This document shows positions 1-29,162 of a stretch of 31,027 nt of DNA, in pieces. Origin of the DNA: an uncultured virus (IMG/VR IMGVR_UViG_3300025033_000013) (lineage: Duplodnaviria > Heunggongvirae > Uroviricota > Caudoviricetes); the IMG/VR virus record IMGVR_UViG_3300025033_000013. One strand, given 5' to 3'. The position numbers and the translations under genes are program-made. The notes below the pieces were generated by a model. It was not told the DNA's origin and did no database searches. It saw nothing but the letters and a program-made list of their open reading frames with translations. How positions within the stretch are numbered: position 1 is the stretch's first letter; each line of letters opens with the position of its first letter.

Positions 1-263
1 TTTACGTGTTCATACGCTGAACCTTTACCTTCATGAATATCATTGAATCCATTCTCTTTAGTGATTACAGATTCTTTAGGTGTTACTGAACCTCTATATT
101 TAGTTCCATAATTACCAGTGAATTTTTTAGTTACTGGGTCGAAATCTCCCCATTTACTATAACCATCACCTATCCATTCAATATAATACTTTTTTCCTGT
201 TTCTGGATAGAACATTATCTCTCTTCCAGTTTCATCTCGATTAAGTAGGAAATTCTTAATCAC
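1..263 (-). CDS. Hypothetical phage protein, runs off the left edge
   Basis: Open frame read manually: (V)IKNFLLNRDETGREIMFYPETGKKYYIEWIGDGYSKWGDFDPVTKKFTGNYGTKYRGSV...; the GTG start at 263 is a guess. Confidence 0.6.
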   Translation of the reverse strand, partial: MIKNFLLNRDETGREIMFYPETGKKYYIEWIGDGYSKWGDFDPVTKKFTGNYGTKYRGSVTPKESVITKENGFNDIHEGKGSAYEHV

Positions 264-300
264 TTCTTTATTTATCCCATGATAATCAAATTTAATTTTG

Positions 301-373
301 CGGATGTCACGGGGGTCGAACCCGCAATCGCTTGAGTGACAGTCAAGCATGTTACCTACAACACCTCACATCC
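301..373 (-). tRNA. tRNA-Asp(GTC)
   Basis: Anticodon arm CTTGA-CTGTCAC-TCAAG, T arm GCGGG-TTCGACC-CCCGT, acceptor GGATGTG/GACATCC (one mismatch), G73; CCA not encoded. Confidence 0.9.
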
Positions 374-382
374 GTTTATAAC

Positions 383-416
383 AAAAAAAAATCTCATCCG
401 ATTTGGATGAGATTTT
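383..416 (-). terminator. Intrinsic terminator (attenuator) upstream of tRNA-Asp
   Basis: AAAATCTCATCC-AAATC-GGATGAGAT followed by a long U run, ending about 10 nt before the tRNA 5' end. Confidence 0.85.
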
Positions 417-447
417 GTCTTATTGTTTTTATTATTTTTTAAATAAC

Positions 448-543
448 TTAACTTTCATTTTTGACAATTCTCATCCTACCCAAGCTAAAATCTGCCTCGG
501 CTGCGAAAAATTCGTTTTCAAATATGTTAATTAAGTTTCTCAT
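448..543 (-). CDS. Putative leader peptide MRNLINIFENEFFAAEADFSLGRMRIVKNES (31 aa)
   Basis: ATG..TAA between promoter and terminator; F/E/A/D-rich block; contains GGATGAGAATTGTC, complementary to the terminator 5' arm. Confidence 0.7.
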   Translation of the reverse strand: MRNLINIFENEFFAAEADFSLGRMRIVKNES

Positions 544-591
544 TACTTTTATTTTGTGGTACTTTATTAATACCGTTATTAATATATAGTG

Positions 592-623
592 CAAATATAG
601 TAAATGTTTCAATATAAAACAAA
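592..623 (-). promoter_or_regulatory. Bacteroidota sigma-A promoter (-33 TTTG, -7 TATATTTG)
   Basis: TTTG-N20-TATATTTG upstream of the leader ORF. Confidence 0.8.
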
Positions 624-2023: not shown

Positions 2024-2301
2024 TCCCTCTAGTCAGAATCGAACTGACGAAATCGTGGGGTCTACTTACTTAAAGAACTTTTAATCCATTTTCTAATTGC
2101 GTTATCCGTAACAGTTAGGAAAAATTAAATTATTTTTACTTTAAAATTAATACTTCGGATTGTACCCTTACTCAGAGTCGAACTGAGAACGTTTCTTATG
2201 TTTTCCACTGGGTCTAAACCAGCAAGCTTTGCCATTTTGCTCATAAGGGCAGTTTAATAATAATAAAAGCCACGCTGAATTCCAACGTACAGCATAGAGG
2301 G
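2024..2301 (-). pseudogene. tRNA (probably Leu-TAG) split at the anticodon loop by a ~200-bp insert
   Basis: 5' half 2301-2267 (CCCTCTA TG CTG..CAG C GTGGC TT) and 3' half 2064-2024 (TAG AC CCCAC GATTTC GTCAG TTCGATT CTGAC TAGAGGG A); perfect 7-bp acceptor stem between the halves. Confidence 0.75.
2163..2250 (-). tRNA. tRNA-Leu(TAG), nested inside the split tRNA
   Basis: Acceptor GCCCTTA/TAAGGGT, anticodon arm GCTGG-TTTAGAC-CCAGT, long variable region, T arm CTCAG-TTCGACT-CTGAG, A73. Confidence 0.85.
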
Positions 2302-2448
2302 TTATTTTATTCTAATTGTAATTCTATATATTTTATCTTCATAGTCATGTTCCCACCTAACAACATCAACTCGTTTATGCCATTCACTAATTTCATATTT
2401 AGAACCTTTCATGTCAACTTCCGAAACTTCAATTGTATGCGTTTTCAT
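2302..2448 (-). CDS. Small hypothetical protein (48 aa, MKTHTIEVSEVDMKG...)
   Basis: ORF read manually in the tRNA cluster spacer. Confidence 0.45.
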   Translation of the reverse strand: MKTHTIEVSEVDMKGSKYEISEWHKRVDVVRWEHDYEDKIYRITIRIK

Positions 2449-2629
2449 TGTTTTTAAACTTATTGATTAATTTATATGTTGCAAAATTTTCAGTTACGTT
2501 AAAATTATAACCAAAAAACCTAAAACGAAACCCTTTCACATATTTATATTTTCTATATACCCAAAAATAGTTAATTTTTGGAACATCTTTAAATATTGAA
2601 TACGGAGTTTTTGTTATTCTAATTTCCAT
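2429..2629 (-). CDS. Small hypothetical protein (MEIRITKTPY...)
   Basis: ORF-track entry trimmed to the ATG at 2629 because the longer start overlaps a tRNA. Confidence 0.5.
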   Translation of the reverse strand: MEIRITKTPYSIFKDVPKINYFWVYRKYKYVKGFRFRFFGYNFNVTENFATYKLINKFKNNENAYN

Positions 2630-2642
2630 AATTTTAATTTTG

Positions 2643-2717
2643 TACCCCAGTGGGAATCGAACCCACGAAACGACAGGGCTTAAACCTGTTGTGCATTCCA
2701 ACGTGCACCATGGGGGT
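2643..2717 (-). tRNA. tRNA-Leu(TAA), short variable loop; acceptor 3' strand one G short
   Basis: ACAGG-TTTAAGC-CCTGT, GTGGG-TTCGATT-CCCAC; acceptor ACCCCCA vs TGGGGT-A. Confidence 0.75.
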
Positions 2718-2719
2718 GC

Positions 2720-2881
2720 TTACATAAAAATTGATATATTATTATCGTTTTTTATTATTTTACTACATGTTAATTTTTCTATTATTTCAAAATAACCTTC
2801 TATATTTGATGACTTTGTTTTAACCAATTCATTCATAGACATTTCAACTTTTGGTGCTATTATTTTATTCCAATTTTTCAT
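2720..2881 (-). CDS. Small hypothetical protein (53 aa)
   Basis: ATG..TAA ORF exactly filling the spacer between two tRNAs. Confidence 0.35.
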   Translation of the reverse strand: MKNWNKIIAPKVEMSMNELVKTKSSNIEGYFEIIEKLTCSKIIKNDNNISIFM

Positions 2882-2882
2882 G

Positions 2883-2956
2883 TAGCCCCATTAGGAATCG
2901 AACCTAAGACCTTCTCCGTGTAAAAGAGACGCTCTAAACCACTGAGCTATGGGGCC
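2883..2956 (-). tRNA. tRNA-Val(TAC)
   Basis: Canonical cloverleaf, TCTCT-TTTACAC-GGAGA, A73. Confidence 0.95.
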
Positions 2957-2961
2957 AATTG

Positions 2962-3047
2962 TGGGGATGGTGGGAGTCGAACCCACACGCCCCTTTCGAG
3001 GCACTGATGCTTAAAACCAGCGTGTCTACCAATTCCACCACATCCCC
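2962..3047 (-). tRNA. tRNA-Leu(TAA), class II
   Basis: GGGGATG/CATCCCC, CTGGT-TTTAAGC-ATCAG, variable arm GCCTC-GAAA-GGGGC. Confidence 0.95.
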
Positions 3048-3060
3048 ATTATCATCTAAA

Positions 3061-3192
3061 TAACTGCAATAGGATTCGAACCTATACGTATATGCCTATA
3101 ACAGAGGGTTCACCCTTCAACCCAGATGGCAAGTCTGCGGCTAGTCATTAAGACGGTTAGGTCCCCGTGGCTACCAATTTCACCATACGCTC
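3061..3192 (-). ncRNA. 132-nt tRNA-like RNA with expanded multi-hairpin centre
   Basis: Leu-like D arm GTG-AAATTGGTAGC-CAC and T arm ATAGG-TTCGAAT-CCTAT, but no canonical anticodon loop and an imperfect acceptor. Confidence 0.55.
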
Positions 3193-3252
3193 ATTTAGAT
3201 ATTCAGACCATCATTTTATGTTGCAACATAACAGATGGCCTCACAATTGTTG

Positions 3253-3338
3253 TGCGGCCAGAGGGATTCGAACCCCCGTTATACTATTCGCCCCCACCTT
3301 GTAAGGGTGGTGCTCTTGACCTACTGAACTATGGCCGC
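3253..3338 (-). tRNA. tRNA-Val(TAC) with 16-nt variable region
   Basis: GCGGCCA/TGGCCGC, CCACC-CTTACAA-GGTGG, T arm intact. Confidence 0.85.
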
Positions 3339-3350
3339 ATTTTTATTTTG

Positions 3351-3435
3351 AGCACTAGGTTGGATTCGAACCAACGTTGAGATTTCTCTGGCGGTTTTGC
3401 AGACCACCCCCTTCGACCACTCGGAGCACTAGTGC
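3351..3435 (-). tRNA. tRNA-Cys(GCA) with long variable arm
   Basis: GCACTAG/CTAGTGC, GTGGT-CTGCAAA-ACCGC, U73 Cys discriminator. Confidence 0.9.
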
Positions 3436-3437
3436 AT

Positions 3438-3469
3438 AAAAAAGCTCGATGCGTTAACATCGAGCTTTT
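3438..3469 (-). terminator. Intrinsic terminator (attenuator) abutting tRNA-Cys
   Basis: AAAAGCTCGATG-TTAACG-CATCGAGCTTTTTT, 2 nt before the tRNA 5' end. Confidence 0.85.
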
Positions 3470-3501
3470 ATAACAATTTAAAAAATATATAAATAAATCC
3501 T

Positions 3502-3585
3502 TTAAGTAATTACATAACTCGATGTGTCAGTACACACGACCAACAGACATAAAGATAATAAAGTTACTAAAGTTTTCATTTTCAT
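3502..3585 (-). CDS. Putative leader peptide MKMKTLVTLLSLCLLVVCTDTSSYVIT (27 aa)
   Basis: 11 of codons 6-18 are Leu/Val/Cys; contains ACATCGAGTT, complementary to the terminator 5' arm. Confidence 0.75.
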   Translation of the reverse strand: MKMKTLVTLLSLCLLVVCTDTSSYVIT

Positions 3586-3672
3586 TTTTATTTAAGAGAC
3601 TGTTCAGATTCAATCCTTTCCCATTTGGGTTTGTCCAGATGTATTATCCTATCTCTTGTTAATATATATGTG

Positions 3673-3704
3673 CAAATATAGTAATTGTTTAAATAAAAAA
3701 CAAG
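3673..3704 (-). promoter_or_regulatory. Bacteroidota sigma-A promoter for the leader/tRNA cluster
   Basis: CTTG-N20-TATATTTG. Confidence 0.75.
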
Positions 3705-4719: not shown

Positions 4720-5601
4720 TCAATATTCTTTGATAATATCTGTTAAATATTGACCGTATCCACTTTTACCCAACGAATGTGACAGTTCAACGAGTTGTTG
4801 TGAATCAATATATCGCATTCTCCAAGCAACTTCTTCAATACAACCTATTTTAAGGTTTTGAAGATTTTGGGTTGCTTTGACAAAATCACTAGCTTCATTC
4901 AATGAATCAAATGTCCCAGTATCTAACCAAGCAGTACCTCTATTTAATTTAACAACGGCTAAAGAATTATTTTCTAAGTATACTTGATTAATTGAAGATA
5001 TTTCTAATTCACCTCTATCACTAGGTTGTATAGTTTTAGCTATATTAATCACACTATTAGGGTAAAAATATAAACCTGGTATTGCATATCCAGATTTAGG
5101 GGTTTCAGGTTTTTCTTCAATTGATATTACGCTACCTTCAGAATCAAATTCCACAACACCAAATCTTTCAGGGTCTTTTACGTGGTACCCAAAAATAATT
5201 CCAGCTTCAAAACCAGTATCAATATCTTCAACGCATTGCTGTAAAATTTTAGATAAACCACCACTATAAAATATATTATCACCTAATATCAATGCTACAC
5301 TATCACTTCCAATAAATTCTTCACCTATAATAAATGCTTCAGCTAACCCATTGGGCTGTTCTTGAACAGCATACTCAAATCTACAACCTAAATGAGTTCC
5401 ATCACCCAATAATTTTTTAAATAAGTGTTGGTCCTCTGGGGTTGTAATTATAAGTATTTCATTAATTCCAGCCAACATAAGCGTTGATAATGGGTAATAA
5501 ATCATTGGTTTATCGTATATTGGCATTAGTTGTTTACTAACGCTAATTGTGAGTGGGTGCAACCTTGTTCCAGCACCGCCAGCTAATATAATTCCTTTCA
5601 T
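4720..5601 (-). CDS. rmlA: Glucose-1-phosphate thymidylyltransferase
   Basis: [18 protein letters not shown]...[39 protein letters not shown]. Confidence 0.97.
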
Positions 5602-29048: not shown

Positions 29049-29127
29049 TAACGACAGTGGGATTCGAACCCACGTTTTCAGCTCCGCTACCCTTATCGGT
29101 TTAGAAAACCAACGGGGCTACACCCGC
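29049..29127 (-). tRNA. Rearranged tRNA-like gene, anticodon TCT (Arg), chimeric acceptor
   Basis: TAGC CCCG TTGGT-TTTCTAA-ACCGA TAA GGG TAGCGGA GCTG AAAAC GTGGG-TTCGAAT-CCCAC. Confidence 0.6.
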
Positions 29128-29139
29128 ATTTATTTTATA

Positions 29140-29162
29140 AAGACCCCCTCGGCTATGCCGCC
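29140..29162 (-). pseudogene. 5' fragment of a rearranged tRNA ending at the anticodon loop
   Basis: GGCGGCA TAGC CGAG GGGGT CTT; GGCGGCA pairs with TGTCGTT at 29056-29050. Confidence 0.55.

Follow-up and report, generated by a model that had tools for sequence, protein, structure and literature searches.

Leader, terminator and tRNA cluster of unit B

The window analysed here, 31,027 nt long, is the reverse complement of positions 1-31027 of a 93,027-bp virus record with 31% GC (IMG/VR IMGVR_UViG_3300025033_000013, an uncultured member of the Caudoviricetes), whose host group we take to be Bacteroidota-type/flavobacterial. All tRNA genes of the record lie on a single strand, the - strand of the window, and at 623-300 on that strand lies unit B, in which a promoter, a short leader open reading frame (ORF) and an intrinsic terminator precede a tRNA-Asp gene in the manner of a candidate transcription attenuator. 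Window coordinates are separate from those of the 93-kb record, which carry the prefix C1. The parts of unit B, with the source of each assignment, are listed below.

592-623, - strand: promoter, with a -33 element TTTG (623-620) and a -7 box TATATTTG (599-592), 20 nt between them (sequence)
574-558, - strand: 5'-proximal hairpin of the leader transcript, 6 pairs (minimum free energy, MFE, fold)
448-543, - strand: leader ORF of 31 codons plus TAA, peptide MRNLINIFENEFFAAEADFSLGRMRIVKNES, ATG at 543 and stop at 450-448 (ORF list)
487-522, - strand: regulatory block, codons 8-19, FENEFFAAEADF, proposed segment 1 (codon match)
463-476, - strand: segment 2, proposed antiterminator strand GGATGAGAATTGTC, within the leader ORF (pairs with 419-405)
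405-419, - strand: segment 3, GACAA-AA-TCTCATCC, the terminator 5' arm and its 5' extension (duplex, fold, alignment)
383-416, - strand: intrinsic terminator, 12-bp stem 416-388, loop AAAUC, T9 tail 391-383 (terminator scan)
300-373, - strand: tRNA-Asp(gtc), first gene of the putatively gated cluster (ARAGORN; Rfam 47.8 bits)

The promoter, the 31-aa ORF, the terminator and tRNA-Asp lie exactly where the initial annotation, made from the sequence alone, had placed them. The promoter is of the flavobacterial TAnnTTTG type and was not listed by a scan for the sigma-70 consensus; in passages of a Flavobacterium transcriptome paper, TAnnTTTG is given as the sigma-A -7 box of flavobacteria (PMC9723704). 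A 15-nt motif around the -7 box precedes all three leaders found in the 93-kb record and is present in 69 metagenome stretches. The leader ORF, nested in a 54-aa TTG-start ORF (448..612), has no Shine-Dalgarno sequence. From its stop, an AT-rich spacer of 31 nt leads to the terminator, whose hairpin has an energy of -14.9 kcal/mol and whose T run is followed after 9 nt by tRNA-Asp. Since this gene begins 9 nt past the T run, and the tRNA-Cys of unit A 2 nt past its own, there is no room for a separate promoter and either tRNA can be reached only via terminator read-through; a search between the attenuator and the tRNA-Ala gene of the cluster revealed neither a second full promoter nor a further + strand terminator.

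ARAGORN and Rfam together gave the order of cluster B as Asp, Asp, Phe, Glu, an HTH-HNH gene, Phe, Glu, two tRNA-like pieces and Ala, all but the first Asp lying beyond window position 1. The HTH-HNH endonuclease gene (C1 31647-32135, Pfam) sits between the two Phe-Glu pairs, and tRNA-Ala(tgc), at C1 33334-33408, scored 37.7 bits in Rfam against a gathering score of 29 and was called by ARAGORN only at a relaxed threshold. Apart from tRNA genes, with tRNA-Asp as the first that would be regulated, the cluster holds a few small ORFs and the HNH gene, and no amino-acid biosynthesis or aminoacyl-tRNA synthetase genes are among the genes that unit B would regulate. Phe, Glu and Ala tRNAs had been predicted to follow Asp in sequence that the initial annotation had not seen, and all three were found there, but the Asn and Ile tRNAs that it had tentatively added were not.

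The leader is matched to this cluster at the level of codons. Of the 12 codons in the block, 11 have a cognate Phe, Glu, Asp or Ala tRNA downstream, and the 11/12 block residues in {D,E,F,A}, which had been noted at the outset, were reached by only 20 of 2,000,000 random 30-mers; with the set {D,E,F} that ARAGORN returns by default, the block has 8/12, reached by 6062/2,000,000. Over the whole leader, 12/30 residues belong to the cluster set with Ala included, and of these 30 codons 11 are cognate when wobble is allowed, 1 more matching in its amino acid alone. Across the units, most matches hold at the codon level.

Sister units and recurrence in other phages

A rule-based detector run over the whole 93 kb returned unit B, two units of the same layout, A and C, and nothing else. 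Their features are as follows.

3440-3704, - strand: unit A, same promoter type with the -7 box at 3680-3673, terminator 3469-3440 (sequence)
3502-3585, - strand: unit A leader ORF MKMKTLVTLLSLCLLVVCTDTSSYVIT (ORF)
2162-3435, - strand: unit A tRNA cluster, Cys, Val, Leu, Val, Leu, Leu (ARAGORN)
C1 43273-43492, outside the window: unit C leader MRNYTTYTKQYQPKGGKSQGQLSIRCSDITEF, which precedes Pro, Lys, Thr, Tyr, Gln, Glu, Thr, a sigma-70 gene and Gly

In unit A, 12/26 leader residues fall in {C,V,L} (P 2e-4) and the duplex of segment 2, CACATCGAGTTA, with the terminator arm has an energy of -14.0 kcal/mol, a value reached by 0/1000 shuffles. The three units are built to closely similar dimensions, the stop codon lying 32, 31 and 30 nt from the terminator and segment 2 falling within ORF nt 59-76, and each leader (12/26, 12/30 with Ala, and 19/31) is enriched solely for its own cluster, the off-diagonal comparisons all being depleted. 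These three fractions are reached by 5, 2 and 1, respectively, of the 437 small ORFs in the genome. The idea that each tRNA cluster has its own sensor thus fits three of the four tRNA groups of the record, and the layout recurs in four other phages, but no leader precedes the Arg tRNAs at the far end of the window.

Those other phages are three uncultured huge phages (LR745206.1, LR756502.1 and LR756501.1) and the cultured Cellulophaga phage Calle_1 (MT732432.1), in which the same layout stands, in unrelated sequence, before tRNA clusters. LR745206.1, an uncultured 635-kb phage, was reached via a weak DNA match and LR756502.1 was found next; in both, four large tRNA clusters are each preceded by a promoter, a leader and a terminator, the leaders have nothing in common with those of the window beyond layout, and the rule-based detector found three internal units more. 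Their leaders include MTTMNLNMTMNLTLNVVNITLCNIR... before Asn, Arg, Leu, Val, Ile, Thr and Met tRNAs, ...STHKNFSKSHKWFSNQSF... before His, Phe, Trp, Lys, Arg and Ser tRNAs, and ...APVNPQPQDQDP... before Pro, Asp and Gln tRNAs, and among the internal units are MTTSFQQQQQQQINRTD before four tRNA-Gln and ...SSRSRSS... before Arg, Ser and Arg. Calle_1 has three units, with leader ORFs that are unannotated in the record stretch examined: MKTIMNIATDIRTKGVK... before Lys, Ile, Gly, Met, Asp, Thr, Val and Arg; ...NNFSWYSNCSFSS... before Ser, Ser, Asn, Trp and Phe; and ...RLLHQEPLEQLRLPSR... before Pro, Gln, His, Leu and Arg. In LR756501.1 (stretch L029, reverse strand 5421-5489), a 22-codon leader with seven Leu codons, representing all six Leu codons (TTG twice), precedes five tRNA-Leu genes with anticodons tag, gag, caa, taa and tag. 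That this leader samples all six codons before a cluster with four anticodons points to sensing at the codon/anticodon level and not at that of the amino acid.

Many of these otherwise unrelated leaders open with M-x-(T/N)-(I/L)-x-N-I, as in MRNLINI, MKTINVNI, MNTITNI, MNRFTNI, MKNLILNI, MKTIMNI and MNNILHI (window 543-523 and stretches L009, L010, L016, L017, L019, L028 and L029), pointing to a common origin or else to a requirement that they share at the start of translation in hosts lacking Shine-Dalgarno sequences.

Could such units arise because AT-rich intergenic DNA yields short ORFs and any terminator finds a weak complement nearby? Unit B on its own, taken with the strict tRNA set (P 0.09), would be compatible with this, but the seven independent units of the 93-kb record and LR745206.1 give a Fisher's combined p of 1.3e-11, and among the leader-to-cluster assignments in the 7x7 comparison the true one alone (1/5040) reaches the observed match, in agreement with the initial argument that the same architecture in unrelated sequence speaks against chance. 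The rarity of the block among random peptides and the retention of the leader frame in 9/9 aligned sequences (see below) speak against it as well, as does the yield of 0 candidates that the same detector gave beside the 21 tRNAs carried on the scanned strand of a T5-like Enterobacter phage. We therefore give chance practically no credence, the counts already refuting it as far as sequence statistics can. Leaders were not found for single or paired tRNAs in these phages (stretches L011, L012, L013, L014, L020 and L021). The detector misses two units, one in L018, in which an ORF separates the terminator from the tRNAs, and one in L029, in which the first tRNA to be called is 177 nt away, and it picks the wrong ORF for Calle unit 2. 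When the conserved 5'UTR motif of the huge-phage units was compared with IMG/VR, all 6 matches were chance ones, without tRNAs.

Pairing, conservation and the proposed switch

Within the leader ORF, GGATGAGA-ATTGTC (476-463) is a near copy of the terminator 3' arm, and its complementarity to the 5' side of the terminator, remarked on in the initial annotation, was borne out: with its partner GACAA-AA-TCTCATCC (419-405) it forms 8 bp (GGATGAGA/TCTCATCC) and 5 bp (TTGTC/GACAA). Equally as described there, the block ends at 487 and the complementary segment begins 10 nt later, at 476, a distance of about the reach of the leading edge of a ribosome. The 2:3 duplex of unit B has an energy of -12.2 kcal/mol, which was reached, when the upstream sequence was shuffled with its dinucleotides kept, in 6/1000, 3/500, 0/500 and 3/1000 cases in four runs. 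If ORF nt 1-67 are masked, as if by a ribosome stalled at the last block codon, and the transcript is ended in the terminator loop, the predicted fold is 2:3; the complete transcript folds as 1:2 plus the terminator. Fold energies of 1:2, 2:3 and 3:4 (-14.0, -14.0 and -15.5 kcal/mol respectively) are so close that any switch between them must be kinetic.

Pairing of this kind is not peculiar to unit B. In 13/15 units the pairing of leader to terminator 5' arm was reached by <=80/1000 shuffles each, and segment 2 lies late in the ORF across units, at nt 47-92, ending 1-29 nt ahead of the ORF end. Moreover, when the terminator arms of 36 rule-picked units were swapped, leaders paired with their own arm at a mean of -11.05 kcal/mol and with those of other units at -7.60, the own-arm mean being reached by 0/10000 re-pairings, although orthologous units share arms and ranks within a family are consequently not independent.

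A promoter-pattern scan of metagenome contigs, which gave the 69 stretches mentioned above (55 distinct), retrieved orthologues of all three leader families of the record and a fourth family. Unit B alignments comprised the window and eight diverged metagenomic orthologues (n=9; 83% mean column identity), and the 31-codon frame, its length and its stop are kept in 9/9. All eight orthologues retain the F/E/D/A block and, where their 1.5-kb flanks reach, are followed by Asp, Asp, Phe or Glu tRNAs. Conservation is 0.89-0.95 in the ORF and 0.70 in the spacer. Codon 10 is AAC in 5 sequences, TTT in 3 and GCA in 1, the changes from AAC to TTT or GCA being whole-codon swaps that each yield a cognate codon; at codon 11, 7/9 sequences have Glu or Asp. 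The terminator covaries (93.2% of cells paired; 3 pairs with 7 cells double-changed; 0/500 shuffles reach the score), and the 2:3 helix is kept, with 89.7% of cells paired compared to 24-43% with slid partners. In other families segment 2 varies along with the arm, CATCGAGC occurring with GCTCGATG but GCATCAGG with CCTGATGC, and ATCAGCTG mirrors the terminator 3' arm.

The fourth leader family (MQTISIIHINSIMNWRRNS...; stretches L034, L036, L042, L044, L047, L051, L053, L067, L070, L072 and L090) has the same promoter and precedes His, Trp, Ser, Asn and Met tRNAs, none of them present in the 93-kb record, which may be incomplete or may have lost a fourth unit.

The same alignments bear on whether the ORFs instead encode functional small peptides or arrest peptides, the terminator just ending a small gene and the tRNAs being expressed by constitutive leak-through. 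Within the ORF, conservation is highest in the C-terminal tail SLGRMRIVKNES (identity 0.95), and the leader of unit A resembles, by eye, a lipoprotein signal peptide, two points in favour of this reading. However, the tail is conserved at synonymous sites also and encodes segment 2, and all that peptides of different families have in common is a composition that follows the tRNAs encoded downstream. Furthermore, in two orthologues an Arg-to-Ser change in segment 2 (AGA to AGT) accompanies the matching T-to-A change in the terminator arm; since these U:A sequences alter the amino acid, it is the RNA pairing and not the peptide that is preserved there. A peptide function with leaky tRNA expression is accordingly very improbable in our judgement.

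Unit B is very probably a ribosome-mediated leader-peptide transcription attenuator that controls the phage's own tRNA genes. We infer, from the arrangement of its parts, that the leader is translated, that its translation is coupled to transcription and that slow decoding is what turns the switch on. Transcription would begin at the Bacteroidota-type promoter and the 31-codon leader would be translated, its block FENEFFAAEADF being written in codons of the downstream Phe, Glu, Asp and Ala tRNAs. A ribosome slowed in the block would stay upstream of segment 2 (GGAUGAGA-AUUGUC) and leave it free to pair with the emerging terminator 5' arm, so that no terminator would form and RNA polymerase would read into tRNA-Asp and the rest of the cluster. 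With fast decoding, the ribosome would cover segment 2 and reach the stop 20 nt on, the terminator would form and transcription would end 9 nt before tRNA-Asp. Each tRNA sub-cluster would in this way be switched on by a decoding shortage for precisely the codons that it serves. Because the output is a tRNA and not an amino acid, the useful signal would be a lack of tRNA, with decay of host tRNAs, mismatched codon usage or anticodon nucleases as its possible causes. Passages of the Flavobacterium transcriptome paper that describe 'strong clues' for leader-peptide attenuation before amino-acid operons make such a mechanism plausible in hosts of the presumed group (PMC9723704).

Several observations weigh against attenuation by this route. 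As regards the codon match, the {D,E,F} set of default ARAGORN shows weak enrichment over the unit B leader as a whole (9/30, P 0.09), the leader has four Asn codons and cluster B no tRNA-Asn, and the tRNA-Ala that raises the score lies 2.7 kb downstream, beyond the HNH gene and a 263-aa ORF, and is called only by Rfam and relaxed ARAGORN. As regards the RNA, 2:3 (-14.0 kcal/mol) is no stronger than 3:4 (-15.5 kcal/mol), and a ribosome-free partial transcript also folds as 2:3, so that the untranslated default may be read-through. The 1:2 helix appears in MFE folds, but 118/500 shuffles equal that of unit B, and most other units are similar. In 2/15 units (W2-b and W2-c) the 2:3 pairing is no better than in shuffles, and in 5/15 segment 2 ends 22-29 nt before the ORF end and so probably lies outside a ribosome at the stop codon. 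Finally, 2:3 does not covary in the unit B family, where 330/500 shuffles reach the score and 8/13 pairs are invariant; one pair is A:U in 2, U:A in 2 and broken in 5 of the 9 sequences.

These shortcomings of the RNA helices would be accommodated if the leader sensed its cognate codons and the output were exerted via Rho access, a terminator proximity effect or tRNA-precursor processing or stability, without competition between 2:3 and 3:4: covariation of 2:3 in the unit B family is not above shuffles, the 1:2 helix is unsupported, 2:3 does not outweigh 3:4, and two units lack significant 2:3 pairing. Such an output would leave unaccounted for, however, the copy of the terminator 3' arm at a fixed place in the leader in 13/15 units, the preference of leaders for their own terminator arm in the swap test and the concerted changes of segment 2 and arm (CATCGAGC/GCTCGATG versus GCATCAGG/CCTGATGC) in other families. 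We regard this alternative as unlikely, if less so than a peptide function, and favour attenuation through competing 2:3 and terminator helices.

Relation to known attenuators and features of the tRNA clusters

Leader-peptide attenuation is known for genes of amino-acid supply, and tRNA genes are usually regarded as constitutive or growth-rate controlled. The closest parallels are the multivalent leader-peptide attenuators of enterobacterial amino-acid operons, thrL (Thr/Ile) and ilvL (Ile/Leu/Val), which likewise have a promoter-proximal short ORF with a codon block for several amino acids, a terminator, and an upstream segment that pairs with its 5' arm, the position of the ribosome picking between two folds, as is proposed for the phage units. 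The latter differ in that their targets are tRNA genes and not biosynthetic enzymes, which would make the feedback one on decoding capacity and not on amino-acid synthesis, and in belonging to a phage of a Bacteroidota-type host, with a TAnnTTTG promoter, no Shine-Dalgarno sequence and an unsupported 1:2 helix. Runs of a single codon family, as in hisL, leuL and pheL, have counterparts in MTTSFQQQQQQQINRTD before four tRNA-Gln and in the seven-Leu-codon leader before five tRNA-Leu, but here the target is the tRNA itself and the Leu leader samples six codons for anticodons tag, gag, caa and taa. The pheM leader of the Escherichia coli pheST attenuator also controls a translation-apparatus gene for the amino acid that it encodes; its target, however, is an aminoacyl-tRNA synthetase and one amino acid is sensed, whereas the phage target is tRNA.

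T-box leaders, too, place a terminator/antiterminator switch before translation-apparatus genes and read tRNA status, but they bind uncharged tRNA directly and without translation, whereas unit B has a conserved ORF; no T-box match to Rfam was found in the window or in the stretch that holds the unit B leader (L001). At gathering score, cmscan of the window with Rfam, including its leader families (Leu, His, Thr, Trp leaders and others), returned only tRNA, and for stretch L001, with E values of up to 1 admitted, it gave tRNA and two chance matches but nothing else. Candidate attenuation in Flavobacterium psychrophilum shares the presumed host group and the promoter type with the phage units but concerns amino-acid biosynthesis operons, tRNA genes being unmentioned in the passages on it (PMC9723704).

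The type of switch proposed is a textbook one; the tRNA targets, the composite, cluster-specific leaders and the phage setting are not. No account of leader-peptide control of tRNA genes was found in open-access papers and bioRxiv, older subscription literature (e.g. on T5/T4 tRNA regions) lying outside the search, and the isolation paper of Calle_1 has 0 occurrences of 'leader' or 'attenuat' and mentions only '20 tRNAs and one tmRNA'. We think it likely that Bacteroidota phages run a supply-and-demand control of the tRNA pool, in which each sub-cluster is transcribed only on stalling at its own codons. If so, these would be the first tRNA genes under leader-peptide attenuation, and a phage could answer host tRNA loss, codon-usage mismatch or tRNA-cleaving defences separately for each isoacceptor group. 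Such control would also explain why phage tRNA genes are grouped, with phages gauging decoding capacity codon by codon, and would offer a handle on what phage tRNAs are for, whether they compensate for codon usage, replace host tRNAs that have been degraded or serve to escape anticodon nucleases. The leaders would be natural, compact multi-codon sensors of translation speed, usable as reporters, and Calle_1 with its host Cellulophaga sp. HaHa_2_95, a cultured phage-host pair with three units, makes the idea testable by ordinary methods.

Other features of the record were noted in passing. Cluster C contains, between Thr and Gly, a complete sigma-70 family gene (C1 45163-46035; regions 1.2, 2, 3 and 4, Pfam), the closest match of which among cultured phages has 37% identity; in IMG/VR, this sigma factor, the promoter pattern and a 149-aa upstream protein matched only identical copies of this phage. 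An open frame at window 3-350 (- strand) runs from inside tRNA-Asp into a downstream gene of >100 aa, to C1 31070; its in-frame ATG lies in tRNA-Asp, a GTG and a later ATG being the start candidates, and its product matched no Pfam family. The window and the record differ at five positions (0-based C1 1995, 10140, 10189, 10196 and 10218), none of them in the units described. Just downstream of the -7 box of unit B, both arms of the 5'-proximal hairpin differ among orthologues, as GGTAC/GTACC, GACAC/GTGTC, ACACTT/AAGTGT and GGACA/TGTCC (by eye, uncounted; window 574-558 and metagenome stretches L033, L039, L055, L092, L096 and L100), and this hairpin may serve as a 5' stabiliser or a pause element.

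In the leaderless Arg group, a 114-nt Rfam tRNA match (window 29049-29162, - strand, 33.6 bits) that default ARAGORN does not call may be a tRNA with an insertion. Odd lengths were also seen for Cys (86 nt), Val (87 nt), Leu (79 nt) and the second Asp (91 nt) tRNA genes, tRNA halves or tRNA-like pieces are interspersed with good tRNAs, and the duplicates Asp/Asp and Phe-Glu/Phe-Glu occur (odd tRNAs and fragments at window 3350-3435, 3252-3338 and 2641-2719, and at C1 31240-31330, 32229-32270, 32466-32531 and 32544-32618), so that the tRNA clusters look as if they were in the process of reshuffling.

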